A stretch of 64,000 nucleotides of DNA from Gaiellales bacterium (GCA_038212095.1 JBBQUW010000010.1:11084-75083), one strand, 5' to 3'; positions 9,486 to 24,868 are shown, numbered from the stretch's first letter. A program made the numbers and translations. The notes: generated by a model from the sequence alone, not told the origin.

Positions 9486-10418
9486 CTACTTCTCGCCGTC
9501 GGCGGGCTTGGCCGCCGTCTCGGTGTCGCTCGCGGTGGCGCTCTTTGCGGTGCTCTTGGTGGTGGTCGTCTTCTTCGTGCTCTTCGCTGCTGCCGGTTTC
9601 GCGGCGGCGGGTTTGGTCGCCGGCTTCTTTGCCGCCGGCTTGGCGGCGGGCTTCGCAGCCGCAACTGCGACAGTGGGCTCGGCCTCCGGCGCGGACTCGA
9701 CGACCGGCTCGGGCGCCACGACGGCCGGCTCCGGCTCGGGATCCGCCGCCGCCGCTGGTGCCGGCTCGCTCTCGGGCGCCGTCGCCGGTGCCGCCGCAAC
9801 GGGCGCGGGCTGGGCTTCGTGCGTAGGCTGTTCGGGAATCGGCGATCCGTCGGCGGCCACCTGCGCCGTCACCACGTTCTTGTGGGGCGCGAGCATCATC
9901 ACCATGTTGCGGCCGTCCTGCAGCGGTGCAGACTCGACGACGCCCAACTCCTGCACCTCGTCGGCCAACCGCAGCAGCAACACGCGGCCACGGTCGGGAT
10001 GCGTCATCTCCCGTCCCCGGAACATGATCGTCACCTTGACCTTGTCGCGGTTCTTGAGAAAGCGGACGACGTGCCCCTTCTTGGTGGCATAGTCGTGAGG
10101 ATCGATCTTTGGTCGCAGCTTGATCTCTTTGATCGTGATGGTGGACTGGTGCTTGCGGGCGAGCTTCGCCTTCTGCTCCTGCTCGTACTTGTACTTCGAG
10201 TAGTCCATCACCCGGCAGACGGGCGGCTTCGCGTCCGGAGCCACCTCGACCAGGTCGAGGTTGGCGTCCCAGGCGTACTTCAGCGCCTCATCCGTGCTCT
10301 TGATGCCGATCTGCTCCCCGTCGGCGCCGATCAGGCGCACCTGTGGGACACGGATGGCGTCGTTGATGCGGGTGGTTGGCTCCGCCGGCCGTTGGTCGAA
10401 CCGTCGCCGCGGTCTCAA
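9486..10418 (-). CDS. infC: translation initiation factor IF-3 with a 129-aa low-complexity C-terminal tail
   Basis: IF3 blocks [81 protein letters not shown]. The 5' end is uncertain. I place it at in-frame TTG 10418, which gives a 181-aa core. The track ORF start (GTG 10490) would translate a terminator hairpin and U-tract. Confidence 0.88.
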
Positions 10419-10466
10419 GACGAGTGCCCAGTCACGATCTGTGTCAAGCCCGGAGTCTCCCTCCGT

Positions 10467-10501
10467 CGAAAACAGAAAAACGGGCGCCACATGGGCACCC
10501 G
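10467..10501 (-). terminator. intrinsic-terminator-like hairpin plus U-tract inside the infC leader (candidate attenuator)
   Basis: The minus-strand RNA reads CGGGUGCC-CAUGU-GGCGCCCG (8 bp including one G.U) followed by UUUUUCUGUUUUCG. The SD-like GGAGGGAG (10464-10457) comes immediately after. Confidence 0.55.
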
Positions 10502-10716: not shown

Positions 10717-11376
10717 ATGATCGCGGTCGTGTTCAATGACCGAGCCCAAGCTGGGGCAGGTCTGGCGGCGGCACTGCCCGATCTGCGCATGAAGTCGAAC
10801 GTCACCGTGATCGGGCTTGCCCGGGGCGGCGTGGAGGTCGCGTACGAGACGGCGCACCTGCTGCGGCTACCGCTGGACGTGTTGTGCGTCCGCAAGGTCA
10901 GCATGCCGGGGTATGCCGAGCTGGCGATGGGCGCGGTGGCGCCACAGGGCGAGCGGTTCACCAACCGCCGCATCGCCTCGCTGCTGACCACCCGCCAGAT
11001 CGAGGAGGCGTATGACTCGGCGATGGTCGAGGCGCGGGCGATGGACGACCGTCTCCGCGCCGGCCTTCCCCTCAACCTGGTCGGCCGCGTCGCGCTGATC
11101 ATCGATGATGGCGCGGCCACCGGCGCATCGGTGCGGGCCGCGATCGCCGCCGTCCGCAACGCCGGCGCGCGCCAGATGATCGTGGCACTTCCGGTGTTGC
11201 CACGGCCGGCAGCCGAGCGGCTGGCACGCGAGTGCGACCGGCTGGTCACGCTGCGCGCACCTCAGCGGTTCCAGTCGGTCGGCCAGTTCTATCAGGACTT
11301 CCAGCCCGTGCCCGAGGACCGTGTGCGCGAGCTGTTGGCGGCGGCCCAGCCGGCCGCCGAGCAGCAGCCGGTGTGA
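10717..11376 (+). CDS. phosphoribosyltransferase-family protein
   Basis: 219 aa with the PRPP-binding loop VALIIDDGAATGASV. The architecture resembles stand-alone predicted PRTases. Confidence 0.8.
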   Translation: MIAVVFNDRAQAGAGLAAALPDLRMKSNVTVIGLARGGVEVAYETAHLLRLPLDVLCVRKVSMPGYAELAMGAVAPQGERFTNRRIASLLTTRQIEEAYDSAMVEARAMDDRLRAGLPLNLVGRVALIIDDGAATGASVRAAIAAVRNAGARQMIVALPVLPRPAAERLARECDRLVTLRAPQRFQSVGQFYQDFQPVPEDRVRELLAAAQPAAEQQPV

Positions 11377-11661: not shown

Positions 11662-12480
11662 TCAGGCCAGGCCGAGCAGCTCCCGCGCCGCCGCCGGCGT
11701 TGCCGGGCGTCGGCCGGCCAGCGCCGCGATCGCAGCCACCCGCTCCACCAGCGCGGCGTTCGATGGCGCCGGCACCCCCGCGTCGGCCTCGACCTGATCC
11801 TCGAACCCGCAGCGCACGTGGCCGCCGCAGGCGATCGCTGCCGTCACGACCGGCAGGAAGCTGCGGCCGATCCCGGTCGCCGTCCAGGTGGAGCCGGCCG
11901 GCAGCCGGTCGCTGAGGTCGACCACGTTGCGCGGGGTGCCGGCCGCGCCGCCGGGCACGCCCAGCACCAGATCGTAGTGCTGGGGCCCATCGAGCGGCGC
12001 CTTCGCGATCAGCCAGGCCGCGTTGTCCAGGTGGCCGAGGTCGAAGATCTCGAGCTCGGACCGCACCCCGGCCGCGATCTGGGCGCGTGCAAACGCGAGC
12101 ATCAACGGCGCAGGATTCTCGAACACTCCCTGGCCGAAGTTGACGCTGCCGCACGTCAGCGTGGCCATATCCGGCGCGGCGGCCAGCGAGCCCAGCCGTT
12201 CCTCCGCCGACATGCCGATCGCGCCGCCGGTGGACACCTGGACGATCATCTCCGGCACCTGGTCTCGGATCTCGTCCACGATGATCCGATAGCGCTCGCC
12301 GTCCTGCGTAGGCGTGCCGTCGTCCCAGCGCGCATGCACGTGCACCATCCGCGCGCCTGCGTCGAACGCCCGCCGCGTCTCGGCCGCGATCTCACCTGGG
12401 GTGTGGGGCACCGCCGGGTTATGGCTGCGCGTCGTCTCCGCCCCGCAGGGCGCGACGGTGATGATCAGGTCGTCAGACAC
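11662..12480 (-). CDS. beta-keto acid cleavage enzyme (BKACE / 3-keto-5-aminohexanoate cleavage enzyme family, DUF849)
   Basis: 272 aa: MSDDLIITVAPCGAETTR...MVHVHARWDDGTPTQD...QVSTGGAIGMS...ATLTCGSVNFG...GHVRCGFEDQV, typical of the Kce/BKACE TIM-barrel family. Confidence 0.9.
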   Translation of the reverse strand: MSDDLIITVAPCGAETTRSHNPAVPHTPGEIAAETRRAFDAGARMVHVHARWDDGTPTQDGERYRIIVDEIRDQVPEMIVQVSTGGAIGMSAEERLGSLAAAPDMATLTCGSVNFGQGVFENPAPLMLAFARAQIAAGVRSELEIFDLGHLDNAAWLIAKAPLDGPQHYDLVLGVPGGAAGTPRNVVDLSDRLPAGSTWTATGIGRSFLPVVTAAIACGGHVRCGFEDQVEADAGVPAPSNAALVERVAAIAALAGRRPATPAAARELLGLA

Positions 12481-12497
12481 GGCGTCGCGCGCGGCCG

Positions 12498-12908
12498 CTA
12501 CGCCCCGTGGCCGCCGGGGCCACGGTGGAACTCGCGCTTGACCACATACGTGCCGCGGGCCCGGGTCACCAGCACCGGCGGCTCGAGCAGATCAGCGGCC
12601 GACTCGTTGACGTCCCCGCGGGCGGTGATCTCCTTCCACAGCTCCAGATCGACCGTGCGGCTGGTGGTGCCCATGCGCACGATCGTGCCGCTCGCGCGCA
12701 CGAAGTCGCCGGCGTGCACCGGCGCCAGGAACTCCACCTTCTCGTAGCCGGCGAACAATCCCTCGTCGCCATCGGTGCGCACGGCCAGCTCGGTGACGAT
12801 GTCACCGAAGATCTCGAGCCCGTGCGCTCCGTCGACGAGGTTGCCTCCATAGTGGGCATCCGCGGCCGACAACCGCACCCGCAGCTCGACCTTCAGTCCC
12901 TCGCTCAT
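12498..12908 (-). CDS. hotdog-fold protein (3-aminobutyryl-CoA ammonia-lyase-like or acyl-CoA thioesterase-like)
   Basis: Track ORF trimmed to ATG 12908 (MSEGLKVELRVRL...), 136 aa. The hotdog core is FLAPVHAGDFVRASGTIVRMGTTSRTVDLELW. The size and the BKACE neighbour match Kal-type proteins, but a thioesterase cannot be excluded. Confidence 0.7.
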   Translation of the reverse strand: MSEGLKVELRVRLSAADAHYGGNLVDGAHGLEIFGDIVTELAVRTDGDEGLFAGYEKVEFLAPVHAGDFVRASGTIVRMGTTSRTVDLELWKEITARGDVNESAADLLEPPVLVTRARGTYVVKREFHRGPGGHGA

Positions 12909-13082
12909 GCGTTCCCCCGTCGAATCAGTTCCTGCGCCATCCATGCCGCCACCTGGGACGGCCCGGGCCCTGGCCCGAGGCCGGCATCGTATCCGAGCGC
13001 CGACCCGGCTGGTCACGGTCGATCTCGAAGGCGCGGCCAGGCCCGATCCCCCGCCCGGAGATAGCGGCCGAGGCCGGCCTGC

Positions 13083-14021
13083 TCACGCCCGCCGAGCGAG
13101 GTCGACCGGAAACCGCGGCTGCAGCCGGCCGTCCCGCTTGCGCAGCTCGGGCCGGTCGGCCACCAGGCAGTTGTAGACCGCCTCCTCGGCCGCCTCGTAG
13201 GCGGCGGCGAAGTACGGGTTCAGCTGGTCGTTCTCGAGCGTCTGCGGCCGGGCGGTGGTGAATGAGACGGCGATCTCGCCGGAGCCGTTGTGGGCGTACG
13301 ATCCCGCCCGCGCCAGGCCCAGCAGCGGCCGCAGCGCGAGCCGCCGCAGCTGCATCGCCGTCATCGGCGCGTCGGTGGCACAGACCGCGATGCACGAGCC
13401 CTCAGCGGGAGCCGGCTGTTCGGCCGGGTCGAAACGCAGCCCGCCGGCGGCCAGCCGTTCACGTTCGCCGAAGTTGCACATCAGGAGCACGCCCAGCGTG
13501 TGGTCGCCGACGCGTCGCGAGGCGGTGCCGATGCCGCCGGCGAACTCGAAGCACGTCATACCGGTGCCGCCGCCGACGGAGCCCTCGGGGACGTCGCTGG
13601 AGAGAGCGGCCCGCGCTCGCATCACGTCCTGCACGGTGATGGTGCGCGAATCGGCCAGATCGCTGTCGTCGCACTCCCCCACCACGGGAATCAAGGTGTT
13701 ATCGGGATCACCGCCCTCGGCCAGCACGGCGGCGTGATAGACCATGCCCAGCGCGTGCGTGCCGCACAGGTAGATGCCGGTCTGGATGATGCCCCACTCG
13801 TCGATCTCGAGCTTCTTGGTCAGCTCGCCGACGCCGTTCACGGTGGCCACGCCGGCCCTGACGGGCAGCGATGGCGGCGCGATCACGGTCACGCCGGTGA
13901 GCTCACCGCTCTCGGCCTGCGAGTGACCAACCAGCACACCGGGTACATCGGTGATCGAGTTGCGCTCGCCGATCGGCAGCAGTCCCACGGGACCGGCGAT
14001 ATCTCTCCAGCGTTCGGGCAT
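13083..14021 (-). CDS. S58 (P1) family peptidase, DmpA/BapA-type L-aminopeptidase / beta-peptidyl aminopeptidase
   Basis: Trimmed to ATG 14021 (MPERWRDIAGP...), 312 aa. Blocks NSITDVPGVLVGH, GVTVI, GGGTGMTCFEFAGGIGTASR (self-cleavage/nucleophile region), GSGEIAVSF. Confidence 0.85.
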   Translation of the reverse strand: MPERWRDIAGPVGLLPIGERNSITDVPGVLVGHSQAESGELTGVTVIAPPSLPVRAGVATVNGVGELTKKLEIDEWGIIQTGIYLCGTHALGMVYHAAVLAEGGDPDNTLIPVVGECDDSDLADSRTITVQDVMRARAALSSDVPEGSVGGGTGMTCFEFAGGIGTASRRVGDHTLGVLLMCNFGERERLAAGGLRFDPAEQPAPAEGSCIAVCATDAPMTAMQLRRLALRPLLGLARAGSYAHNGSGEIAVSFTTARPQTLENDQLNPYFAAAYEAAEEAVYNCLVADRPELRKRDGRLQPRFPVDLARRA

Positions 14022-14101
14022 GAACGGTGCTCTATACCAGACTGACACCGGGTCGCGCTGAGACGACCGGCGTGGCGGCAGGTTGGGCACGCATCCTCGT
14101 G

Positions 14102-14503
14102 TCAGGAGGCCGAGGGGTACTCGTCGTGCTGAGGCAGGTGGTCGAGGATCGGATACCACGGAGCCTTCGAACCGACGAAGATATGCGCCGTCGGCGTGTG
14201 CCCCGGCTGGTCGACGAGGCCGCCGTACGGAACCCGTACGCAGCCGCGCTCGCGCACGGTCCAGTACAGCAGCGAGAAGCAGAGCCGGCAGCGGATCTCG
14301 TGATCCGCGGTCTTCTCGCCGACCTCCAACAACAGATCGACACCCTTCAAAATCATCAGCTTTTCCCGCTCGATCTCACCCCACGGCAAGAACGCCGACC
14401 CGGTGGTCGCGCGACAGTTCGAGCAGTGGCAGTTGTACGCGACGACGAACTCATCCGCGACCTCGTATGCCACCGCATCGCATCCACAGCGACCTCTCAG
14501 CAT
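14102..14503 (-). CDS. GFA-family (glutathione-dependent formaldehyde-activating / CENP-V-like) zinc protein
   Basis: 133 aa with Cys pattern GRCGCDAV...CHCSNCR...CRLC, typical of GFA. Confidence 0.8.
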   Translation of the reverse strand: MLRGRCGCDAVAYEVADEFVVAYNCHCSNCRATTGSAFLPWGEIEREKLMILKGVDLLLEVGEKTADHEIRCRLCFSLLYWTVRERGCVRVPYGGLVDQPGHTPTAHIFVGSKAPWYPILDHLPQHDEYPSAS

Positions 14504-14512
14504 GCGGCCATC

Positions 14513-15873
14513 CTAGCGCCGAAGCCCGCGCATCACCCGCTCATCCGGCCCCGCCGAAAACCTCCACGGATGCGCCGCCTCGAATGCCGCCGCCGCCCGA
14601 AGCACCAGCGCGTCCGCCCCACGGCGGCCGATGATCTGGAGGCCTACCGGCATGCCGTCAACGCTGCCGCAGGGCACGGTCGCCGCCGGCTGGCCGGAGA
14701 CGTTGAACGGATAGGTGAACGCCGTCCAGGAGAGGTACTCGGTCGGCACGCCGGCCACCGAGCCCGGCTGGTCGAGGCCGGCCGCGAACGCCGTCAGCGG
14801 CAGCGTCGGCGTCAGCATCAGGTCGTGGTCGTGCATGAACGCGTCCCAGACCGCTGCGTAGCGAGCCTTGGCGCCCTGGGCCGAGACCAGCGCGGTCGCC
14901 GGCAGCCGAAGACCCCGCTCGATCACCGTCACGCGGCCGGGGTCGAGCAGCTCCTCCACCTCCGCCAGACGTCCGTCGGCGAACGGCGCCGCCTGGCTGG
15001 TGCACCAGATCGTGTCGACGATCGGCCACGGATCGGGCAGCGACGGGTGGCGCGCGTCCAGCCCGCTCCCAGCGCGGCGAAGCTGCGCGCCGCCGCCTCG
15101 CAGACCGCGACCACCTCCGGCTCGACGGCGGCGTAGCCCAGGTCGGCCGACCACGCGACTCGAACGCCGGCCACGCCGCCCGCCAGACCCGCGAGCGTCT
15201 CGCTCCCCGTCAGCACATCAAGCAGCAGCGCTGACTCGGCCACGTGGCGGCTGATCGGCCCCTGCACCGACAGCCCGGAGTTGACGACATCGGTCGGCAC
15301 CAGGCCCCAGGTCGGCTTGAGGCCGAACACGCCGCACATCGAGGCCGGGATGCGGATCGAGCCGGCGCCGTCGCCCCCGTGGTGCAGGACGCCGGGCAGG
15401 CGCGCCGCCGCGGCCGCCGCCCCGCCGCTGGATCCGCCGGCCGCCTGCGATGGCCGCCACGGGTTGAGCGTCGACCCGTGCACACGGCTCGAGGTCTCGC
15501 CCTTCCAGCCGTTCTCCGGCGTCGCCGTCTTGCCGATGATGGCGGCGCCGGCTGCCCGGACGATCGCCACCAGCGGCGAGTCCGCCGCTGCGATGCGGTC
15601 GCCACCCAGCAGCGAGCCGGCGGCCGTGCGCACGCCGGCCACGTCCAGCAGATCCTTGATCGTGACCGGCACGCCCGCCAGCGGCCCGGCGGTGCCGTCA
15701 GCGTAGGCCCGCTCGGCGGCCGCCGCCTGCCGCAGGGCCAGATCCGGTGTCAGCGTGACGAACGCGTGCAGCTCGCGGTCGACGTCATCGGCCCGCTGCA
15801 GCGTCTCGCGCACCACCTCGACCGGCGAGCGCTCTCGCCGCCGGTAGGCGTCGAGCAGGTCGAGGACGTTCAC
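14513..15873 (-). pseudogene. amidase-signature (GatA-like) amidase, split by a -1 frameshift near 15062-15064
   Basis: ORF 14929-15873 carries the AS core GGSSGGAAAAAA...GGDGAGSIRIPASMCGVFGLKPT and stays family-like to ...SFAALGA. ORF 14513-15154 continues as GLDARHPSLPDPWPIV...FTYPFNVSGQPAATVPCG...GLQIIGRRGAD. The total length of 1361 nt plus 1 is divisible by 3. Confidence 0.8.
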
Positions 15874-15888
15874 CGCGCCCCGCCCGCG

Positions 15889-16902
15889 TCAGCCGGGCGC
15901 GGTGACGATGCAGGCCGCGCGATGCTCGGCCACGTGCGACTCGCGCGCCCGGTGCAGCTGGGGGTCGATCGACTTGCAGCGCTCCTCGGCGATCGGACAG
16001 CGCGGGTGGAAGCGGCAGCCGGACGGCACGTGCACCGGGTTGGGCGTCTCGCCCTTGAGGATCTGTGGCACCGTCTGCTCGCGAGGATCGCGTTTTGGCA
16101 CCACAGAGATCAGCGCCCGCGTGTAGGGGTGCTGTGGATTTCGCACCACCTCCTTGGCCGGCCCCTCCTCGACGATCCGGCCCAGGTACATGACCGCGAT
16201 CCGATCGGCGAAGTGTGCCGCCGTGGAGAGGTCGTGCGTGATCATCAGGATGCCGAGCCCCTGCCGGCGCAGACCGTCCAGAAGCGAGAGGATGCCGGCC
16301 CGCACCGAGACGTCGAGCATCGACACCGGCTCGTCTGCCACTAGCAGCTTGGGATCGAGCACCAGGCTGGCCGCGATCGCGACCCGCTGGCGCTGGCCGC
16401 CGGACAGCTCGTGCGGGAACCGGTCGATGAACAGGTCAGGCGGCGTCAACCCGGCCCGGTCGAGCGCCTCGCGCACCTTCGCCTCGCGTTGCGGCTTGGA
16501 GCCGGCGATGCCGTGCACCAGCAGCGGCTCCTCGATCGTGTCGCGCACGGTGAAGCGCGGGTCGAGCGACTCGTAGGGATCCTGGTAGATCATCTGGATC
16601 TCGCGCCGCAGGGGCCGCAGCGAGCGCGCCGAGAGGCTCGAGATCTCGCGGCCGCGAAACTTGATCGAGCCTGACTCGTTCTCGACCATCCGGATCACCG
16701 TCTGCGCGGTCGAGGTCTTGCCGCATCCCGACTCGCCCACCAGCGCCACCATCTCGCCCTCGCCGACGCTGAACGAGACGCCCTCCACCGCGTGCACCGA
16801 GAGCTTCGGTCGCCGTGCCACCGCGCCGATCACCCCACGCGGCACCGGGTAGCGCGTGACCAGGTCGGCGACCTCGAGCAGCGTGCCGCCGACCGTGCTC
16901 AT
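15889..16902 (-). CDS. peptide/nickel ABC transporter ATP-binding protein (DppF/OppF-like)
   Basis: Walker A GESGCGKTS, signature LSGGQRQR, Walker B LLVADEP. C-terminal oligopeptide-type extension with CRFHPRCP. Confidence 0.9.
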   Translation of the reverse strand: MSTVGGTLLEVADLVTRYPVPRGVIGAVARRPKLSVHAVEGVSFSVGEGEMVALVGESGCGKTSTAQTVIRMVENESGSIKFRGREISSLSARSLRPLRREIQMIYQDPYESLDPRFTVRDTIEEPLLVHGIAGSKPQREAKVREALDRAGLTPPDLFIDRFPHELSGGQRQRVAIAASLVLDPKLLVADEPVSMLDVSVRAGILSLLDGLRRQGLGILMITHDLSTAAHFADRIAVMYLGRIVEEGPAKEVVRNPQHPYTRALISVVPKRDPREQTVPQILKGETPNPVHVPSGCRFHPRCPIAEERCKSIDPQLHRARESHVAEHRAACIVTAPG

Positions 16903-17882
16903 GCCGGCTGCTCCAGGGTGACGCGGTCATTGAGGTGGCACATCGCCTCGTGGCCGGGTGCCACCTCCAGCCTGCGAGGATGCGTGTCGGCACAGGGTGA
17001 GAACGCCGAGTCGCAGCGTGGCGCGAATGGACAGCCCACGATCGCCCGATCGAGCCGCGGCGGCGCGCCCGGGATCGAGATCACCGAGTCGTCGCCCAGC
17101 ATGTCCGGCGTGGCCGCAAACAGCATCCGCGTGTAGGGGTGGCGCGGCTCGTGGTAGATCTCGGCCATATCGCCCATCTCGGCGATCTCGCCCGCGTACA
17201 TCACGGCGGCCCGGTCGCAGACCTGCGCCACCACCGGCAGGTCGTGCGTGACCAGCACCATCGAGAGCCCCAGGTCGCGCGTCAGCTGCGTCAACAGCTC
17301 CAGGATCTGCGCCTGCACCATCACGTCCAGCGCGGTGGTCGGCTCGTCCGCCAGCAGCACCTTCGGCTCGCAGGCCAGCGCCAGGGCGATCGCCGCCCGC
17401 TGCCGCATGCCGCCCGAGAACTCGTGGGGATAGCGGTCGGCGCGGTCGCCCGAGATGCCGACGAGGTCCAGCAGCCGCCGCACCTGGGCCCGCGCCACCT
17501 TGCCGCTGGCGATGCCGTGCATCTCCAACGGCTCGGCGATCTGGCTGCCGACCGTCTTGACCGGGTTGAACGCGTTCATGGCACCCTGAAACACCATCGA
17601 GATGTCCTTCCAGCGGTGCGGGCTGACCGTCTCCTCGCCCTTGGCCAGGATGTCCTCACCGTCCAGCAGCACGCGCCCGGCCGCCGATGCGCTGGACGGC
17701 AGCAGGCCCATCAGCGCCAGGATGGTGGTGGTCTTGCCGCAGCCCGACTCGCCCACCAGCCCCAACCGCTCGCCGGCCCGCAGCTCGAAGCTGACGCCCT
17801 GCACGGCGTGCAGCTCGCGTCCGCCGCTGAGATCGAACCAGACGTGCAGATCCTCGACCTTCAGTACCGGCGCGTCACTCAC
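16899..17882 (-). CDS. peptide/nickel ABC transporter ATP-binding protein (DppD/OppD-like)
   Basis: Trimmed to GTG 17882 (VSDAPVLKVEDLHVWF), which overlaps the permease stop as GTGA. Walker A GESGCGKTT, FSGGMRQR, LLADEPTTALD, C-terminal CPFAPRC. Confidence 0.9.
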   Translation of the reverse strand: MSDAPVLKVEDLHVWFDLSGGRELHAVQGVSFELRAGERLGLVGESGCGKTTTILALMGLLPSSASAAGRVLLDGEDILAKGEETVSPHRWKDISMVFQGAMNAFNPVKTVGSQIAEPLEMHGIASGKVARAQVRRLLDLVGISGDRADRYPHEFSGGMRQRAAIALALACEPKVLLADEPTTALDVMVQAQILELLTQLTRDLGLSMVLVTHDLPVVAQVCDRAAVMYAGEIAEMGDMAEIYHEPRHPYTRMLFAATPDMLGDDSVISIPGAPPRLDRAIVGCPFAPRCDSAFSPCADTHPRRLEVAPGHEAMCHLNDRVTLEQPA

Positions 17883-18853
17883 TCGGCGTCGAGCTCCCCC
17901 TGCAGCGGCCGCATGCGGAAGCGGCGAACGGCCAGGTGCCCGACCTTGAGCCGCGGGTTGAGCGCATCCTCCATCGATTGGCCCACCATCGTGCAGGCCA
18001 GGATCACGACCGTCACCGCCAGCCCGGGCGGCACCACCGCCCACCACGCGTTGTTCAACACGGCGTTGCCAAGGAAGGCGTTCTCGATCAGCTTGCCCCA
18101 CGAGACCGTGCTTGGGTCGCCCAGGCCGAGGAACGTGATGTAGGTCTCGAGGAACACCGCCAGCGCGATCATCAGCACAGTGTTTGCGATCAGCAGCGGC
18201 GCCACCTGAGGCAACACGTGCTTTCGGATCAGGCGGCCGTTGCCCGCGCCCAGCGATCGCGCCCGTTTCACGTACACCCGCTCGCGCACGCTCTTGACCT
18301 GCGCCCGGATCAGACGCGCCGTGCTGGTCCAGTAGATGATCCCGATGATCAGGATGATGTTCGCCAAGGTGCGTCCAAACACCGCGGCCACCACGATGAT
18401 CAGCGGCAGGTCGGGAATGACCAGGAAGATGTCGGTGATCCGCATCAGCACGATGTCCACCCAGCCGCCGAAGAATCCCGCCACCACGCCCACCGCGCCG
18501 CCGATCAGCATCGCCACCAGCGCGCCGGCGAATCCCACCTCCAGCGAGACGCGGCTGCCGTACACCATCAGCGAGAACATGTCGACGCCGCCGTCGTCGG
18601 TGCCCAGCCAGTGCGAGCTGCTCGGTGCCTGGTAGATCGGGCCCGTCTTCTGGGTCACGCTGTGGGTCGCGATCAGCGGCGCGAAGATCGCGATCAGCAC
18701 GAATGCGATCACGATCGCGAGCCCGACCACGGCCTGCGGTTCGCCGCGCAGCGTGGCGCTGAAGAAGCCCGGCCGGCGAGTGCTGGCCGGCTCGATCGCC
18801 TCCGGCGCCGCGCCCTCGGGCACCAGTCCGGGCTCGGTGATAAGGCCGCTCAC
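17879..18853 (-). CDS. ABC transporter permease (DppC/OppC-like)
   Basis: 324 aa, 6 predicted TM helices, with the binding-protein-dependent transport motif region ARSLGAGNGRLIRKHVLPQ. Confidence 0.9.
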   Translation of the reverse strand: MSGLITEPGLVPEGAAPEAIEPASTRRPGFFSATLRGEPQAVVGLAIVIAFVLIAIFAPLIATHSVTQKTGPIYQAPSSSHWLGTDDGGVDMFSLMVYGSRVSLEVGFAGALVAMLIGGAVGVVAGFFGGWVDIVLMRITDIFLVIPDLPLIIVVAAVFGRTLANIILIIGIIYWTSTARLIRAQVKSVRERVYVKRARSLGAGNGRLIRKHVLPQVAPLLIANTVLMIALAVFLETYITFLGLGDPSTVSWGKLIENAFLGNAVLNNAWWAVVPPGLAVTVVILACTMVGQSMEDALNPRLKVGHLAVRRFRMRPLQGELDAE

Positions 18854-19824
18854 GTCGTCACCCGCGGGTCGAGCTTGAAGTACAGCAGGTCGGCGATGAA
18901 GTTACACAGGATCACGGACAGCGTCAGCACCAGGAAGGCGCCCTGTAGGAACGAGAAGTCGCGTTTGTCGATCGCGTCGACGATCGCCAGGCCGATGCCC
19001 GGGTAGTCGAACACGTACTCGATCACGAACGTGCCGCCCAGAATGAAGCCCAGCGAGAGCGCGATCAGCGTCACCACCGGCAGCATCGCATTTCGGAAGC
19101 CATGCCTCCACACGATCGCCCAGTTGCTGAGGCCCTTGGCGCGGGCCGTCAGCACGTAGTCCTCGCCCAGCGTCTCGAGCATCGACGAGCGCACGATCAG
19201 CGTGTAGTCGCCGTACAGCACCAGCCCCAGCGTCAGCGCCGGCAGGACGATGTGGGAGAGCCTGTCCTGGAGGAAAGCCGTCGTGCCGGGATCTCCCAGC
19301 ACGCCGTAGTCCGGGCTCTGGATGCCGCCGTGCGGCAGGCCGATCCGATCGGCCAGGAAGTAGACGATCATCAGGCCCAGCCACTGGGTCGGCACGGAGT
19401 AAAAGGCCAGGCTCGTCCACACCGAGATCTTGTCTAAGAACGTACCCCGCCGCCAGGCGGAGATCACCCCCGTGAACACGCCGAACACGATCGAGAACAC
19501 GGTGCCCAGCGTGATCATCGCCAGCGTCTTTTTGATCGGATCCCACAGCTCGCCGCGCACCGGCTGGTGCGAGACGTCCGACCGGCCGAGGTCGCCGTGC
19601 ACCAGCCGGCCGAGATAGATCGTGTACTGCTGCCATTTTGGCTTGTCCAGCCCCAGGTCGTGTCGCAGCGCCGCCTTGTACTGCAGCGTGCAGTGCTGGC
19701 AGCGCAGGCCGGATACGGCATCACCCGGCAGGGCGCGGAACAGCACGAAGTTGATGGTCACCGCGACGAACACCGTGATCAGCGCGAACAACGTCCGCTT
19801 GACGATGTAGTCGGTTCGTCCCAT
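18850..19824 (-). CDS. ABC transporter permease (DppB/OppB-like)
   Basis: 324 aa, typical N-terminus DYIVKRTLFALITVFVAVTINFVLFRALPGD and EAA-loop region TARAKGLSNWAIVWRHGFRNA. Confidence 0.9.
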   Translation of the reverse strand: MGRTDYIVKRTLFALITVFVAVTINFVLFRALPGDAVSGLRCQHCTLQYKAALRHDLGLDKPKWQQYTIYLGRLVHGDLGRSDVSHQPVRGELWDPIKKTLAMITLGTVFSIVFGVFTGVISAWRRGTFLDKISVWTSLAFYSVPTQWLGLMIVYFLADRIGLPHGGIQSPDYGVLGDPGTTAFLQDRLSHIVLPALTLGLVLYGDYTLIVRSSMLETLGEDYVLTARAKGLSNWAIVWRHGFRNAMLPVVTLIALSLGFILGGTFVIEYVFDYPGIGLAIVDAIDKRDFSFLQGAFLVLTLSVILCNFIADLLYFKLDPRVTT

Positions 19825-19860
19825 CTGCTGTCGTGCTGCCCGCGCCCTTCCGGCCGGCCG

Positions 19861-21579
19861 CTAGCCCTTCTTGTAGGGGTCGGTCATGTACCCGTAGTTG
19901 TATCCGTTCAGCTCGGGGTGGTACCCGCCCCAGCTTGGCTGCGCAGCCGAGATCGCCTGCTCGTTCACCAGCTGGGTGTAGATGTAGGCGTCCGAGACGA
20001 TCTTGTCCATCTTCTGGACGATCGCCTTGCGGGCGTCACCGGCCAGCGTTCCCTCCTGCTTGTAGAGGGCGTTGTAGGCCGCGTTGTCGTAGCCCGTGTC
20101 GCTCCAGCTGCACCACTGCCCCTTGGTGGCGACAGAAAGCATGAAGTCGGGATCCGGGTACGAGAACCAGTCCCACAGGGCGATGTCGAACTTGGCGTAC
20201 CCGGTCGACTTGGAGGCGTCGCAGTTGCCATCGGTCTCGACGGCGTAGGACGCCGACGAGTCACCGCCGGCCTGCTCGGTCACCTTGATGCCGGCCGCCA
20301 AGAATCCCGCCTGAACGATTGAGAACTCGCGGTTGCCGTTGAAGTCGAGGCTTCCCGGCACCATCACCTGGTACTCCATCTTATGTGCCGGCTGGGCGTA
20401 CTTGCCCGTGGTTGCCGGCACCACGCGGACGCCATCAGCGCCCTTCTTGTACCCAAGCGCGTCCAGCGCCGCGTTGCCCGCCGCGCAGTCGTACTTCAGC
20501 ATCGGCACGGTCGGGTTCTGCCAGCTTGGGGCAAGCGGCCCCAGCACGCTGGGCGTCGCCAGCGTGGCGTTGCCCGCGTAGATCACCGAGATGATCTGCT
20601 GGCGGTCGACGCACTCGGACATCGCCTGCTTGACCGCCGGGTTCAGGAGCTCCCGGTTCTGCGGCTTGCGCGGGTTCGAGTTCCACGTGATGTTGGTGAA
20701 CTCGCCGTACTTGTAGGGGTGGATCGCCAGCCCCTTGGTCGTCTTGAGCGCGTTGACCGTGGTGTACGGCACCTGGTCGACGGCCGCGATCTGACCCGAC
20801 TTGAGGTCTGCGATCATCGAGTCGGAGTTGGTGTAGTAGACCAGCGCCACCGCGTCGACGTGCGGCTTGGGGCCCCAGAAGCCCGGGTTGGGCTTGAAGA
20901 CCGTCTGGCCCTTCTTGTCGTACTTGGTGATCTGGAACGGGCCGCCGGATACCAGCGGCAGATGCGTCTCGGGCTGGAAGGACTTGAGGTCCTTGCCCTT
21001 GTTGCCCGTGTACTTGCTCCAGACGTGCTGCGGCACGATGTACATGGACGAGATCGCCGACAGCACCAGCTGCGGATCGATCGGTGCGTCGTAGTGGAAC
21101 ACGACCGTGTTGGGGTCGGGCGCATCCACGGTCGTCACGTGGTTGACCGACGAGGCCAGTGTGGCGGTCGCGTCGGACTGGTACTTGACGATCGTGTTGG
21201 CCGTCCAGGCGACGTCTGCAGACGTCAACGGCTTGCCGTCCGACCACTTGGCGCCGGGATGCAGGTGGTACGTCCAGGTCTTGAAGTCCGCGCTGTGCTC
21301 CCACGAGCTTGCGTAGCTGCCCTCGTAGGTCGTCAGGTCGGGGCCGAGCTGGACCAGCTCGGGGTAGACCTCGAGGTAAGCCGTCACGGCCTCTGCCTCG
21401 ATGTAGTTGAACGGGTTCAGCGTATCGATGTAGTTGGTGGTACCGATCGTGAAGATGCCGCCCTGCTTGATCTGGCTGCCGCTCCCGCCTCCACCTCCCG
21501 ATGAGCCGCTGCCACAGCCGGCCGCGGTGACCAGCACCGCCACCAGGGCAACTGCTCCCAGCATTCGTCGTGCTCTCAT
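19861..21579 (-). CDS. ABC transporter substrate-binding lipoprotein, family 5 (peptide/nickel)
   Basis: Trimmed to ATG 21579, preceded by GGGAGGGGAG. The N-terminus MRARRMLGAVALVAVLVTAAGCGSGSSGG has a lipobox. 572 aa with the SBP_bac_5-type body. The start overlaps the upstream stop as ATGA. Confidence 0.9.
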   Translation of the reverse strand: MRARRMLGAVALVAVLVTAAGCGSGSSGGGGGSGSQIKQGGIFTIGTTNYIDTLNPFNYIEAEAVTAYLEVYPELVQLGPDLTTYEGSYASSWEHSADFKTWTYHLHPGAKWSDGKPLTSADVAWTANTIVKYQSDATATLASSVNHVTTVDAPDPNTVVFHYDAPIDPQLVLSAISSMYIVPQHVWSKYTGNKGKDLKSFQPETHLPLVSGGPFQITKYDKKGQTVFKPNPGFWGPKPHVDAVALVYYTNSDSMIADLKSGQIAAVDQVPYTTVNALKTTKGLAIHPYKYGEFTNITWNSNPRKPQNRELLNPAVKQAMSECVDRQQIISVIYAGNATLATPSVLGPLAPSWQNPTVPMLKYDCAAGNAALDALGYKKGADGVRVVPATTGKYAQPAHKMEYQVMVPGSLDFNGNREFSIVQAGFLAAGIKVTEQAGGDSSASYAVETDGNCDASKSTGYAKFDIALWDWFSYPDPDFMLSVATKGQWCSWSDTGYDNAAYNALYKQEGTLAGDARKAIVQKMDKIVSDAYIYTQLVNEQAISAAQPSWGGYHPELNGYNYGYMTDPYKKG

Positions 21580-22436
21580 GTGCTCCCCTCCCTCGTTTGC
21601 AGCGCACGCATGGCGCCGTCGTGATGATCTCGGCCAGGACGCGGAGCGCGCCGGGCCAGCTCGTCGATGTGCTCGGCGGTCTCCTCGACCGCCCGTTGCA
21701 ACCACAGCCGCCCCTTCTCAGCGGTGGCGACGGTTGCGTCCCCGATCACGCCTGACTCAGTCCACCCGCTCCACTGCCCCTTGATCGAGAGCGGGCCGTC
21801 CGTCCAGTCCATCCACACGGTGTCGGAGTCCCACTCGGGGATCTCCCGCACCGCCTTGTCCATCTGCACCAGCTCGGGACGGATCGCGAGGTAGAGCGAC
21901 GTCTCCAGCTCGCAGGCGTGGGCGATGCCGCCGGGACTGTCGCTGTCTCGGGTGCGCTCGAGCAGCTCCATCGAGGAGGGCGTCGAGAGGTACCAGAAGG
22001 TTGCCGCCAGCACGTCGCGTCGTTCCAGCATCAGCAGCCGCGCGGCCATCTCGACCAGCGGCACGTTCGAGCCGTGGCCGTTGACGAACAGGATGCGGCG
22101 AAAGCCGTGGTGGATCAGGCTCTTGCCGATGTCCAGCAGGTACTCGACGAACCTGTTCCACTCGATCGTGATCGAGCCCGGGAAGTCCATGTGGTGCGGC
22201 GTGTAGCCATGGGTGACGGTGGGCAGGAGCAGCGCGGCGCCAGGGCGCGCCTGCACGGCGCGCTCCGCCAGCGTCTCGGCGATCACAGCATCTGTATCGA
22301 TCGGCAGGTGGTGGCCGTGATCTTCCAGCGTCGCCACCGGGATCACACAGACCGGATCCTCGGCCGCCCGCGCGGCGACCTCGGGCCAGGTCAGCTCGGC
22401 GTACCGGTGGGTTGCTGGAGGAGGGTCAGAAGGCAT
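21576..22436 (-). CDS. creatininase-family amidohydrolase
   Basis: 286 aa with family motifs LEDHGHHLPIDTD, FVNGHGSN, HACELETS. Confidence 0.85.
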   Translation of the reverse strand: MPSDPPPATHRYAELTWPEVAARAAEDPVCVIPVATLEDHGHHLPIDTDAVIAETLAERAVQARPGAALLLPTVTHGYTPHHMDFPGSITIEWNRFVEYLLDIGKSLIHHGFRRILFVNGHGSNVPLVEMAARLLMLERRDVLAATFWYLSTPSSMELLERTRDSDSPGGIAHACELETSLYLAIRPELVQMDKAVREIPEWDSDTVWMDWTDGPLSIKGQWSGWTESGVIGDATVATAEKGRLWLQRAVEETAEHIDELARRAPRPGRDHHDGAMRALQTREGST

Positions 22437-23487
22437 ACAGCTGGTCGTCAGAGTCGCATGGGTTACCGCGACCGTACGTGATCTCTCCCTCTGTGACGTC
22501 GGCGATGCACCAAAAGACAGTCTTGGTCTGAGAATCCGCCTGCGGGTGCCGGCAGATCGAGTCCGGCGCGTCGCGGTGATCGCTCAGCGCGGCCCGAAGA
22601 TCCGCCGCCGTGATCGTGTTGTGCGTCAACCATCCGAGCGCGCGACGATACCGGACGTCAGAGCGTGCTGCATAGGCAACGTCGCCCTCGTAGCGCCGCA
22701 TGCGGTCGCTGACGTAGTGGTTGGTGTGGGCCAGCGTGCCGCGGGCGTCCGGCCGCAGCAGCTCGGCGTCGGTGGCGGAGCCCTCGACGTCGATCACGTT
22801 GCCGTCCCGGTGGCTGAGCACGTTGTTGTACGACGAGGCCCGCAGGGGATGCAGCGCTGCGGCCACCGCCTCGTCCAGCGTGCGCCGGCGGAGGATGTCT
22901 CGCACCTGCAGCAGCCGCGGGATACCGACCCGGTTGTCGTTGGGCGTCAGCTCGTTGCCCGTCAGGGCGAGGCCGGCGGAGTTGAAGCCGACGCTGATCC
23001 ACGAACCGACGCCGATCGTGAACAGCACAGGATCGCCGTCCACACGCCACTCGATCGCGATCAGGTCGCGCTCGCTGTCGGCGGAGAGGTCGTTGGTGTG
23101 GGCAACCCACAGGTGGCCGTCGGCGGTCGCGGGCGGACACGCGACCAGGTCGGAGCAGCCGCGAGCCGGCTCAGGCGCAGGCTCGTCGAGCTCCTCGATC
23201 CCGGCCGCAAACAGCGCTAAGGGGTCGACGCCGGCGCCGCGGGCGACGCCGTCCAGCTCCTCCACCAGCCACGGCAGCTCACGCCGCGTGACCTCCCGAT
23301 AGGGCTGGGCGGCTGCCAGGGCGGCCGGTGAGAGCCCGCGACAGCGGCGGCCGATCGGCTCGCCGCACGCCGCGCCGATCTGCTCGCCCACGGCGGCGAG
23401 GCTGCCGACGACACGCAGCAGCTCGATTGGACGCGGCCGGGCCGTCTCAGCCACCGCTGCCGATCCAGCGGGCGACGATGGCAGCAC
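22426..23487 (-). CDS. peptidase C45 / acyl-CoA:6-aminopenicillanate acyltransferase-like Ntn hydrolase
   Basis: 353 aa with the putative self-processing nucleophile context RGCSDLVA, then WVAHTNDL, SYNNVL, AHTNHY. Confidence 0.75.
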   Translation of the reverse strand: MLPSSPAGSAAVAETARPRPIELLRVVGSLAAVGEQIGAACGEPIGRRCRGLSPAALAAAQPYREVTRRELPWLVEELDGVARGAGVDPLALFAAGIEELDEPAPEPARGCSDLVACPPATADGHLWVAHTNDLSADSERDLIAIEWRVDGDPVLFTIGVGSWISVGFNSAGLALTGNELTPNDNRVGIPRLLQVRDILRRRTLDEAVAAALHPLRASSYNNVLSHRDGNVIDVEGSATDAELLRPDARGTLAHTNHYVSDRMRRYEGDVAYAARSDVRYRRALGWLTHNTITAADLRAALSDHRDAPDSICRHPQADSQTKTVFWCIADVTEGEITYGRGNPCDSDDQLYAF

Positions 23488-23499
23488 CCAGCGGCTCCA

Positions 23500-24087
23500 T
23501 CACGGCTGGGGTGGCCTGCTGCCGACCACCAGCGTGATCGTGGATCCGGGCCCGTAGGTACCGTCGGTGGAGTAGCCGGTGGCGCGCAGCACGGTGCCGC
23601 GGGCGCCGTATGACACCCGCCTGATCACGTAGCGAACCGGCCCGTGGCGGTCGAACAGAGCCCGCGCCCGTGTCAGCGGCAGCCCGACCACCGCCGGGAA
23701 CGGCGATCCTCGCCCACCCGCCGCCTGTGCCCGGTCTCCCAGTGCGATGCCGGTCGCGATCAGCACGACGCCGGCGGCGAACGCGGCCGCGACGGCCGCC
23801 ACGGCGGCGTCTCGGCGCAGCGCGGCCACCACCACCAGCGCCAGGCCGGCCAGCAGCACCACCGCCATCAGCACCGATCCGCCGGCGCCGGACAGCGCCG
23901 CCAGCGCGACCACTGCCACAGCGGCGGCGATCGCCACCCCATCCCACGGCAGCTGCGGCGGACGCGAGCGCGCGCGACTGCGGCGGCGGCGCAGCGCGGC
24001 TGCAGCGGTCGGCGGCGGCGGCTCGTCGGTCGGCTGCATCGACGCGTCGTCTGCGGTCGGTGGCTGTTCGCTCATCGTCGCAACCAT
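23500..24087 (-). CDS. membrane-anchored protein with C-terminal PASTA-like domain
   Basis: Pro-rich N-terminus, two hydrophobic helices, then FPAVVGLPLTRARALFDRHG...GTVLRATGYSTDGTYGPGSTITLVVG, which resembles a PASTA fold. Confidence 0.55.
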   Translation of the reverse strand: MVATMSEQPPTADDASMQPTDEPPPPTAAAALRRRRSRARSRPPQLPWDGVAIAAAVAVVALAALSGAGGSVLMAVVLLAGLALVVVAALRRDAAVAAVAAAFAAGVVLIATGIALGDRAQAAGGRGSPFPAVVGLPLTRARALFDRHGPVRYVIRRVSYGARGTVLRATGYSTDGTYGPGSTITLVVGSRPPQP

Positions 24088-24100
24088 AACCTCCCGCTGA

Positions 24101-24868
24101 TTGAGACGGGAGGCAACGTGGTATAGATCGTTAATGGTGTCAACAGGGTCAACCCGTCCCTCGCCGCGCTACCGGCAGGTCGCCGACATGCTCGAGTCCG
24201 ACATCGTCTCGGGCGCGCTGCAGACCGGCCAGCGCGTGCCATCCGAGCGATCGATCGCCGAGCAGCATGGGCTCTCTCGCATGACCGCCCGCCAGGCCGT
24301 CGAGCTGCTCGTGCGCCGCGGCGTCGTCTACCGCCGCCCCGGATCGGGGACGTACGTCGCACCGGCGCGCGTCGTGCACACGCTCCAGCGTCTGGCGGGC
24401 TTCTCGGAGCAGATGCGATCGCAGGGCATCGAACCCGGCGGCCGCCTGCTGGCGGCACAGCTGTGCGAAAACCCCGATCCGCACATCGAGGATGCGATGG
24501 GGCTGGCAGACGGTGAGCGCTACTGGCGGTTGCGGCGGGTGCGCCTGGGCGATGGCCAGCCACTGCTGGTCGAGCTCTCGCACCTGCCCGCGGCGATCTT
24601 CCCGGCCCTCACGGAGCACGACCTCGGGCACGGCTCGCTGTACGACCTGATGCGCTCGCAGTACGGCGTCGATCCCGTACGCGCCCACGAGACGATCGAG
24701 ACGACGGCCTGCGAGCCGGATGACGCCCGCCACCTGCAGACCCGCCCCGGCGCCCCCGCGATCGTGGTGACGCGGCTCGCCTACGACGCGAGCGGCCGCG
24801 TGGTCGAGCATGCCCGCGACGTGTTCCGCGGCGATCGCGCGCGGTTCGTGGTCGACCTCACCAGCTGA
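24101..24868 (+). CDS. GntR-family transcriptional regulator (HutC subfamily, UTRA effector domain)
   Basis: PRYRQVADMLESDIVSGALQTGQRVPSERSIAEQHGLSRMTARQAVELLVRRGVVYRRPGSGTYV winged HTH followed by a UTRA-like C-terminus. The start could instead be ATG 24134. Confidence 0.85.
   Translation: MRREATWYRSLMVSTGSTRPSPRYRQVADMLESDIVSGALQTGQRVPSERSIAEQHGLSRMTARQAVELLVRRGVVYRRPGSGTYVAPARVVHTLQRLAGFSEQMRSQGIEPGGRLLAAQLCENPDPHIEDAMGLADGERYWRLRRVRLGDGQPLLVELSHLPAAIFPALTEHDLGHGSLYDLMRSQYGVDPVRAHETIETTACEPDDARHLQTRPGAPAIVVTRLAYDASGRVVEHARDVFRGDRARFVVDLTS

Follow-up and report, generated by a model that had tools for sequence, protein, structure and literature searches.

A Gaiellales gene island that is probably an eroded copy of a family-wide operon for peptide-like import, amide hydrolysis and putative beta-lysine catabolism

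Why would a bacterium keep the last two enzymes of lysine fermentation when the enzymes that feed them are gone? This question is raised by a gene island on the minus strand of a Gaiellales bacterium, located at positions 11662-23487 of a 64,000-nucleotide (nt) stretch of DNA (GCA_038212095.1 JBBQUW010000010.1:11084-75083). This whole stretch is termed the window, and positions are counted from its first letter. The GC content of the window is 70%, and the genome comprises 2.94 Mb in 61 contigs and is 95% complete. A first-pass annotation, made from the sequence of the window, described the island as twelve genes that combine a peptide importer with amide and peptide hydrolases, an enzyme of the BKACE family and a hotdog protein resembling Kal, and it stated that this pathway combination could not be named. 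The comparison described below suggests, with moderate confidence, that the island is an eroded copy of a family-wide operon, which in its full form would serve the import of peptide-like compounds, amide hydrolysis and beta-lysine catabolism.

In lysine fermentation, beta-lysine is converted to 3,5-diaminohexanoate and then to 3-keto-5-aminohexanoate. This intermediate yields 3-aminobutyryl-coenzyme A (CoA) together with acetoacetate, and 3-aminobutyryl-CoA finally yields crotonyl-CoA. These lower-pathway enzymes have been known almost exclusively from anaerobes that produce beta-lysine themselves. The same enzymes are predicted here inside an uptake and hydrolysis operon of abundant, almost uncultured soil actinobacteria that have no means to make beta-lysine.

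Family assignments were made with Pfam and NCBIfam profiles, solved structures were compared in the PDB, and gene starts were corrected by alignment to relatives. The twelve genes are real, co-oriented on the minus strand and tightly packed, and all of the families named in the first-pass annotation were confirmed by both profile collections. They are given below in the order of the operon, together with a deletion scar that lies between S58 and Kal.

22426-23487, minus strand: C45-family Ntn acyltransferase/hydrolase proenzyme (NF040521, 170.8 bits against a cut-off of 85; Pfam AAT).
21576-22436, minus strand: creatininase-family metal hydrolase (PF02633, 232 bits).
19861-21579, minus strand: family-5 solute-binding lipoprotein of a Dpp/Opp-type importer (PF00496; signal peptide and AAGC lipobox; start corrected to 21579).
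18850-19824, minus strand: ABC permease 1 (BPD_transp_1 and N-terminal domain).
17879-18853, minus strand: ABC permease 2 (BPD_transp_1 and OppC_N).
16899-17882, minus strand: ABC ATPase 1 (ABC_tran and oligo_HPY; start corrected to 17882).
15889-16902, minus strand: ABC ATPase 2 (ABC_tran and oligo_HPY).
14513-15873, minus strand: amidase-signature enzyme, probably broken by one frame change near 15067 (two frames in Pfam; triad motifs in the N-terminal half).
14102-14503, minus strand: GFA-family zinc protein, a lineage-specific insertion (PF04828, E 3e-18).
13083-14018, minus strand: S58 (DmpA/BapA-family) Ntn aminopeptidase (PF03576, 265 bits; start at 14018, not 14159).
12917-13068, minus strand: deletion scar, comprising a kamE 3′ remnant (12917-12997) and a possible kamD fragment (13000-13068) (tblastn).
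12498-12908, minus strand: predicted Kal, a 3-aminobutyryl-CoA ammonia-lyase orthologue of hotdog fold (NF052388, 163.7 bits against a cut-off of 160, a narrow pass; start at 12908, not 13016).
11662-12480, minus strand: predicted Kce, a 3-keto-5-aminohexanoate cleavage enzyme orthologue of the BKACE family (PF05853, 316.9 bits, profile positions 2-274 of 274).

Most junctions are 4-11 nt overlaps or 9-36 nt gaps, as had been described. Two are wider, namely the gap between GFA and S58 (83 nt) and that between S58 and Kal (174 nt), the latter occupied by the kamE remnant. The start of S58 at 14018 means that it does not overlap with GFA. The twelve genes do form one unit, which is longer than had been claimed, since a thirteenth minus-strand gene (23500-24087) precedes C45 at a distance of 12 nt.

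The hotdog and BKACE pair at the end of the operon is predicted to be Kal and Kce. The resemblance of the hotdog protein to Kal, which had been suggested earlier, is borne out by the Kal equivalog model; thioesterase models give 19 bits or less. Its best match in the PDB is a beta-alanyl-CoA ammonia-lyase (4MTU, E 7e-26), with thioesterases matching at E 8e-7 or weaker, and it is ~60% identical to the Kal of lysine fermenters. For the BKACE protein, the Kce model NF052387 is the best one by ~100 bits, at a score of 338.2 that lies under the cut-off of 382; the Kce orthologues of Gaiellales islands all fall below this cut-off (332-356 bits). The best PDB match is 2Y7D (E 8e-69), to which the HxH, ExE and GFED motifs align unchanged. 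These are the zinc-binding and catalytic motifs of the solved Kce. The protein is 76-82% identical to the Kce found at the same position in full-operon relatives. It adjoins kal in the window, and its positional orthologues in seven relatives sit with kdd, kamBDE and kal. A carnitine-type substrate, which had been considered for this enzyme, finds no support, given the best model and the gene neighbors.

The island was compared with 41 Gaiellales loci and 24 genomes of the same family, and 16 longer loci were used for gene order. The operon occurs in all family members examined. These related loci come from uncultured Gaiellales and Thermoleophilia of soil and sediment metagenomes. The same gene order is found in all of the 41 loci and in all of the 16 longer ones, so that the island is one conserved unit, as had been supposed. 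The consensus order is GntR / PASTA-(kdd)-C45-creatininase-like-binding protein-permease-permease-ATPase-ATPase-(M19)-(amidase)-S58-(kamB-kamD-kamE)-Kal-(Kce) / phosphoribosyltransferase-infC, in which the genes in parentheses are variable.

In seven of the 24 genomes, KamD (~720 bits), KamE and a KamB-like protein are encoded between S58 and Kal. Island-type Kce is found in exactly these seven genomes and in the genome of the window. Kdd is encoded directly upstream of C45, with scores above the cut-off, in all four of the full-form genomes checked (G008, G015, G018 and G022), and KamD, KamE, Kdd and Kal all exceed NCBIfam equivalog cut-offs. An M19 dipeptidase is also present in many relatives. 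No match to the KamA profiles PF12544 or TIGR00238 was found in this genome or in full-form relatives (five tested for PF12544, four for TIGR00238), and control genomes did match. A search for the KamC reactivase in this genome and in four full-form relatives was likewise negative.

Since the full operon has KamDE, Kdd, Kce and Kal, it would encode the conversion of beta-lysine to crotonyl-CoA, and since it has no KamA, the beta-lysine would have to come from outside the cell. The full form is predicted to be a kamA-less route from beta-lysine to crotonyl-CoA, with a peptide importer and four to five amide hydrolases at its core. The combination that could not be named from the window can be named with the help of the kdd, kamB, kamD and kamE genes of sister genomes. 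No description of this operon was found in the literature on beta-lysine importer/hydrolase operons, S58 with Kal, Gaiellales aminomutases and streptothricin catabolism.

The window copy preserves a trace of what it has lost. Positions 12917-12997 encode LGYDAGLGPGPGPSQVAAWMAQELIRR, a stretch of 27 codons that is 78% identical to KamE residues 310-336, the last ones before the stop in a full-form relative. The E-value of this match is 1e-8 within the window and 6e-7 for the whole genome, which contains no other KamE-like stretch. The adjacent KamD-like fragment (13000-13068) is weak (E 0.047), and the bases that directly follow the stop of S58 look like the beginning of kamB in relatives. Segment 12917-12997 is a deletion scar, and the lineage therefore formerly carried kamBDE. 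Sister genomes have a still shorter version of the same kamE tail, and kdd pseudogene fragments occur in two other orphan-Kal genomes on the opposite side of the family tree. The absence of kamA, kamDE and kdd, which had been noted for the window, extends to the 95%-complete genome: KamD, KamB and Kdd were not found elsewhere, with no match to PF09043 or NF052381, and tblastn recovered only the 27-codon kamE remnant.

Other parts of the operon have changed as well. Each half of the amidase shares ~80% identity with an orthologue of 451 residues that is intact, and the shift in frame falls at 15067-15070. Amidase-signature enzymes use a Lys/cis-Ser/Ser triad. An independently assembled contig from a public run is identical over 14679-15900, frame change included, and a related strain from another study, which is ~92% identical, has one extra base at 15062. 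The frameshift is probably real. Of the public contigs, X1 alone is relevant to it; the remaining depth figures stem from mixed organisms and were set aside. The M19 dipeptidase is absent from the window operon. The GFA gene has no counterpart in the 41 related loci, in which non-coding DNA or nothing is found at this position, and its closest paralogue in the genome is only 31% identical. At the GFA position of one close relative, there is a Cys-rich open frame of ~60 residues with the look of a zinc ribbon (L029:4455-4835, minus strand).

The window operon represents an intermediate state, in which Kce and Kal are kept and kamBDE and kdd are lost, and it is the sole such state among the genomes compared. 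Judged by its gene content, this copy cannot degrade beta-lysine; import and hydrolysis would still be possible. Together with its relatives, it gives an evolutionary series from the full form, through Kce and Kal with a scar, to Kal alone.

Kal and Kce are intact and under purifying selection. Between pairs of orphan-Kal genomes, the ratio of nonsynonymous to synonymous substitution rates (dN/dS) of Kal is 0.04-0.12, which is the same range as for full-form pairs and for neighboring genes, and no alignment column separates orphan Kal from full-form Kal. For Kce, dN/dS is 0.17-0.27 on the branch of the window (dS ~0.26-0.44), compared to 0.13-0.23 on full-form branches. There are 8 lineage-unique Kce substitutions at otherwise invariant columns, compared to 7 and 9 on other long branches. 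Values of dN/dS above 1 for S58 were discarded, as they came from fragmentary tblastn segments.

In a four-marker tree, the window groups with three genomes that have neither kamBDE nor Kce. An unrelated lipoprotein gene occupies the Kce position in these sister genomes. It encodes ~130-150 residues with a signal peptide and an LAGC lipobox (L029:2590-3015, minus strand; also downstream of Kal in L031 and L034). No Kce remnants were found in the genomes without Kce. The shared scar suggests that the kamBDE deletion predates the group of the window, in which case Kce has been kept for long without its feeder enzymes. With independent deletions, Kce could instead be an orphan of recent date. In either case, the retention of Kal, orthologues of which are found in all of the 24 same-family genomes, suggests that a beta-aminoacyl-CoA would arise without KamDE, Kdd and Kce. 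The end enzymes thus stay under selection after the loss of their feeders, which is a testable puzzle and points to a second source of beta-aminoacyl-CoA.

The full form itself is found at three scattered places on the marker tree. Ancestral presence followed by repeated loss is favored for the operon's beta-lysine genes, because scars are found on both sides of the root.

In the C45 protein, the Gly-Cys self-cleavage pair aligns with Gly102-Cys103 of isopenicillin-N acyltransferase (2X1D). The creatininase-like protein lies under both strict cut-offs (MftE, 131 against 172; creatininase TIGR04448, 110.6 against 235). Its metal motifs are partly retained, and GHGSN stands at the site of the creatininase ligand Glu. 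It is best regarded as a predicted member of the Pfam family, neither a strict creatininase nor MftE, and, given these scores and the missing metal ligand, the creatinine- or hydantoin-like substrate that had been proposed finds no support.

DmpA and BapA, which belong to the S58 family, release N-terminal D- or beta-amino acids. The best PDB matches of the window S58 are 2DRH, 5TZB, DmpA (1B65, E 2e-32) and BapA (3N2W, E 4e-28). Its self-cleavage stretch GGG-TGM aligns with GAG-TGM of 2DRH, and the position of the cleavage site is placed as in DmpA. Compared with DmpA of Ochrobactrum anthropi and BapA of Sphingosinicella, the window S58 is of the same family and has the same self-processing motif region, and it is nearer to 2DRH and 5TZB. 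It also differs in having a fixed genomic partner, since in relatives it always adjoins Kal or kam genes, which is not known for DmpA or BapA.

These observations can be combined into a tentative scheme. A small peptide-like amide would enter the cell through the lipoprotein-dependent Dpp/Opp-type ABC importer, and C45, the creatininase-like enzyme and S58, joined in other members by the amidase and the M19 dipeptidase, would take it apart. Which hydrolase cuts which bond is inferred. In the full form, KamDE, with KamB as its reactivase, would turn the released beta-lysine into 3,5-diaminohexanoate, from which Kdd would give 3-keto-5-aminohexanoate. Kce would then give 3-aminobutyryl-CoA and acetoacetate, and Kal would give crotonyl-CoA and ammonia. 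In the lineage of the window, kamB, kamD, kamE and kdd were deleted, the amidase is probably frameshifted, M19 is absent and GFA was inserted. Here Kal and Kce would now serve a beta-aminoacyl-CoA or beta-keto acid that arises without KamDE and Kdd. The release of a beta-amino acid from an imported amide appears to be the most coherent reading. The first-pass annotation had already proposed an unusual beta-amino-acid amide that feeds CoA metabolism, and the full form in sister genomes agrees with this proposal; the flow from beta-lysine is the part that the window copy is predicted to be unable to run.

Several points weigh against an eroded beta-lysine operon. That the importer ligand contains beta-lysine, and that S58 releases it, are predictions from the genes. 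A preference of S58 for an N-terminal beta-amino acid is putative and not established, because the closest structures are 2DRH and 5TZB, uncharacterized ‘D-aminopeptidases’, rather than BapA. As for decay, the amidase frameshift comes from assemblies that probably derive from the same sample, and if Kce is constrained without KamDE and Kdd, the label ‘remnant’ is incomplete. On the marker tree, a loss-only account takes ~8 losses, compared to 3-4 gains, each of which places genes at three fixed positions. In some lineages, the full form may have been re-gained by homologous recombination between relatives. Finally, 34 of the 41 family loci lack the beta-lysine genes and yet keep the rest of the operon, whose main purpose may be something else, with beta-lysine as a by-product.

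In a different reading, the window operon is not a remnant but a complete pathway for another ligand. Hydrolysis would then yield a 3-aminobutyryl, beta-alanyl or 3-keto-5-amino acid unit for Kce and Kal, KamDE and Kdd would be needless, and the beta-lysine genes would be an add-on of sister species that feeds the same end steps. Such a pathway would fit the presence of Kal in all 41 loci, where it is under strong purifying selection with no systematic difference in residues between orphan and full forms. It would also fit the intact Kce of the window (dN/dS ~0.2), the constant adjacency of S58 and Kal, and the promoter-like motifs before S58 and, in relatives, before Kal. However, activation of a free beta-amino acid would require a CoA ligase or transferase, and neither is encoded in the operon. 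Moreover, Kce has been lost in every other genome without kamBDE, which ties it to the beta-lysine branch, and the sister genomes carry the unrelated lipoprotein gene in its place. We also know of no natural source of free 3-keto-5-aminohexanoate. A complete pathway for another ligand is possible but rather unlikely.

It has also been considered that the operon scavenges cell-wall or other D-amino-acid peptides. PASTA would bind muropeptide-like ligands, the DmpA-like S58, M19 and the amidase would cut D-bonds, and the genes of beta-lysine and CoA metabolism would be accessory. The first gene has a putative PASTA fold, the best matches of S58 are annotated as D-aminopeptidases, M19 is found in many relatives and the importer is of the Opp/Dpp type, all of which are consistent with such a role. 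On the other hand, the PASTA assignment is made at the level of the fold, with weak E-values, and no part in the recycling of muropeptides is known for C45 or creatininase-family enzymes. Beta-lysine is, to our knowledge, not a known component of peptidoglycan, and the universal retention of Kal would be left unaccounted for. Cell-wall scavenging is considered quite improbable.

A more specific idea is that the family-wide operon serves to eat or detoxify beta-lysine-type aminoacyl antibiotics of soil actinomycetes, such as streptothricin-, negamycin- or tuberactinomycin-like beta-lysyl amides. Uptake would be of the Dpp type, S58 would clip off the beta-lysyl group, and lineages like that of the window would keep uptake and de-acylation after losing the energy-yielding branch. 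A linked suggestion is that an Ntn hydrolase (S58 or C45) passes the beta-aminoacyl group directly to CoA, which would account for the retention of Kal, and here also of Kce, without a ligase. This idea is speculative and very unlikely to be right.

A chance juxtaposition or an artefact of metagenome binning, to which a 61-contig bin with one frameshifted gene might give rise, can practically be dismissed, since it is refuted by synteny (the same order in 41 independent assemblies from several studies), the island lies mid-contig in its assembly, and the independent contig shows no differences over 14679-15900.

The interpretation as an eroded beta-lysine operon can be placed beside known systems. 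The lysine fermentation cluster of Fusobacterium nucleatum, Acetoanaerobium sticklandii and ‘Ca. Cloacimonas’ contains kamA, kamB/C, kamD, kamE, kdd, kce and kal. Kce and Kal of the window, and KamB, KamD, KamE and Kdd of its sisters, are orthologous to the products of this cluster, with identities to the proteins of the anaerobes of ~60% for Kal and 45-49% for Kce. Unlike the cluster, the Gaiellales operon has neither kamA nor kamC, and the genes of its pathway are mixed, in a single operon, with those for a peptide importer and four to five amide hydrolases; the window has in addition deleted kamBDE and kdd. Gaiella, the one cultured genus of the Gaiellales, is aerobic. In an Anaerovirgula locus (L082), kdd was not found beside kal, which is accompanied by kce and unrelated genes, and a further locus (L071) was no more informative.

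The closest solved structure to Kal is the beta-alanyl-CoA:ammonia lyase Acl2 of Clostridium propionicum (4MTU). It has the same hotdog fold and the same chemistry, which is the elimination of ammonia from a beta-aminoacyl-CoA, whereas the window protein fits the equivalog model of Kal and not that of Acl. An aerobic catabolism of beta-lysine was reportedly described by the Barker laboratory in Pseudomonas B4, which is said to use an N6-acetyl-beta-lysine transaminase and a 3-keto-6-acetamidohexanoate cleavage enzyme. This route is aerobic, starts from beta-lysine and involves a BKACE-type cleavage with acetyl-CoA. It differs in its intermediates and in lacking a 5,6-aminomutase, Kdd and Kal, and no importer/hydrolase operon is known for it.

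The Gaiellales operon is a pathway variant and not a new principle. It points to a source of beta-lysine-containing compounds in soil that has gone unrecognized, and to a role for hydrolases of the S58, C45 and creatininase types, the natural substrates of which are mostly unknown.

The genomic setting of the operon is itself distinctive. In the family of the window, the operon block lies between thrS and infC and also includes a convergent phosphoribosyltransferase. In four genomes of other Gaiellales families, thrS and infC are direct neighbors, separated by only ~210-280 bp (L114-L118). The 14-kb block is therefore an insertion into a conserved cluster of translation genes (window 9486-10490; L114-L118). 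C45 orthologues are found in 23 of the 24 same-family genomes and in none of 16 genomes from four other families, and in the same 16 genomes the Kal profile gave one weak match of 23.7 bits only. The flanking genes and the candidate regulatory sites are as follows.

10717-11376, plus strand: type-I phosphoribosyltransferase (Pfam Pribosyltran; convergent; every family locus has it here, and other families lack it between thrS and infC).
23500-24087, minus strand: thirteenth operon gene, membrane-anchored, its C-terminal domain having a putative PASTA fold (an open frame, 12 nt ahead of C45).
24135-24868, plus strand: GntR/HutC-type regulator with a GntR helix-turn-helix and a UTRA effector domain (Pfam GntR and UTRA; start set by alignment and sequence; adjoins the operon in relatives; divergent).
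24118-24129, plus strand: conserved GTGGTATAGATC motif (5 nt upstream of the gntR ATG; identical in five genomes; one exact copy in the window).
14029-14040, minus strand: CTGGTATAGAGC motif, a candidate for an internal promoter or operator (10 nt ahead of the S58 ATG).
TGGTATAGA sites: the two motifs just listed (24118-24129 and 14029-14040), candidate GntR operators.

The product of the thirteenth gene combines an N-terminus of low complexity with a membrane segment and one putative PASTA-fold domain. This C-terminal domain is 36-77% identical in relatives, full-operon genomes included. Its AlphaFold model has pLDDT values of 81-92, and almost all of the top 17 Foldseek matches are PASTA domains, with probabilities of up to 1.0, TM scores by target of 0.56-0.67 and a best E-value of only ~0.01. 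A protein-atlas lead for the product has a score of 0.84, and a Pfam search of the product gave no match even at E-values up to 1. A stand-alone PASTA protein at the head of a catabolic operon is unusual. A Kdd-like match at 23519-23689 (E 0.55) was considered as a kdd remnant and rejected, as it represents the PASTA gene read through in the long open frame of a relative.

The likely regulator of the operon is the divergent GntR/UTRA protein. The GTGGTATAGATC motif at 24118-24129 is a candidate -10 box of a leaderless gntR mRNA, a candidate HutC-type operator, or both. Within the 47-nt gap between the PASTA gene and gntR, there is also a 7-bp inverted repeat (CCTCCCG...CGGGAGG, 24089-24112), which overlaps a GGGAGG ribosome-binding site on the operon strand. 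Searches for Rfam families, consensus promoters and terminators inside the island found none, which says little for an actinobacterium of 70% GC.

In four relatives, a stretch of 350-390 nt between the amidase and S58 (L024:4420-4791, L025:4378-4768, L028:4417-4775 and L022:12698-13089) has stops in every frame, is partly conserved and ends in a TGATAGAAC motif ahead of the S58 start. This stretch may be a leader or an internal promoter region; an Rfam scan of the L024 copy, the only one of the four scanned, gave no match. In many relatives (L052, L051, L035, L044, L066, L045 and L069), a CGTATCAT motif occurs shortly ahead of Kal, and in other genomes, this window included, GGATACGATG is found inside the kamE tail ahead of Kal. 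From these motifs, Kal may have its own promoter.

A few further observations concern individual operon copies and paralogues. In one full-form genome (G022), a flavin amine oxidase and a TetR regulator are inserted on the opposite strand between kamE and Kal (L015:3519-5527, plus strand). The C45 orthologue of another relative contains an in-frame TAG (G017:C3:798636-799679), and split tblastn matches occur in C45, the binding protein or the ATPases of several relatives; in such genomes the operon may be undergoing decay or suffer from poor assembly. Another BKACE resembling Kce, which scores 308 bits with the Kce model and is located at G000:C37:18219-22004 (L113), was considered as an alternative beta-lysine route, and no link to the island was found. 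It is flanked by a thiamine diphosphate (TPP)-dependent enzyme and a class-III aminotransferase, with a cytochrome c, a MauE-like protein and a pyridoxal phosphate (PLP) decarboxylase nearby, and the paralogue is also present in three full-form relatives.

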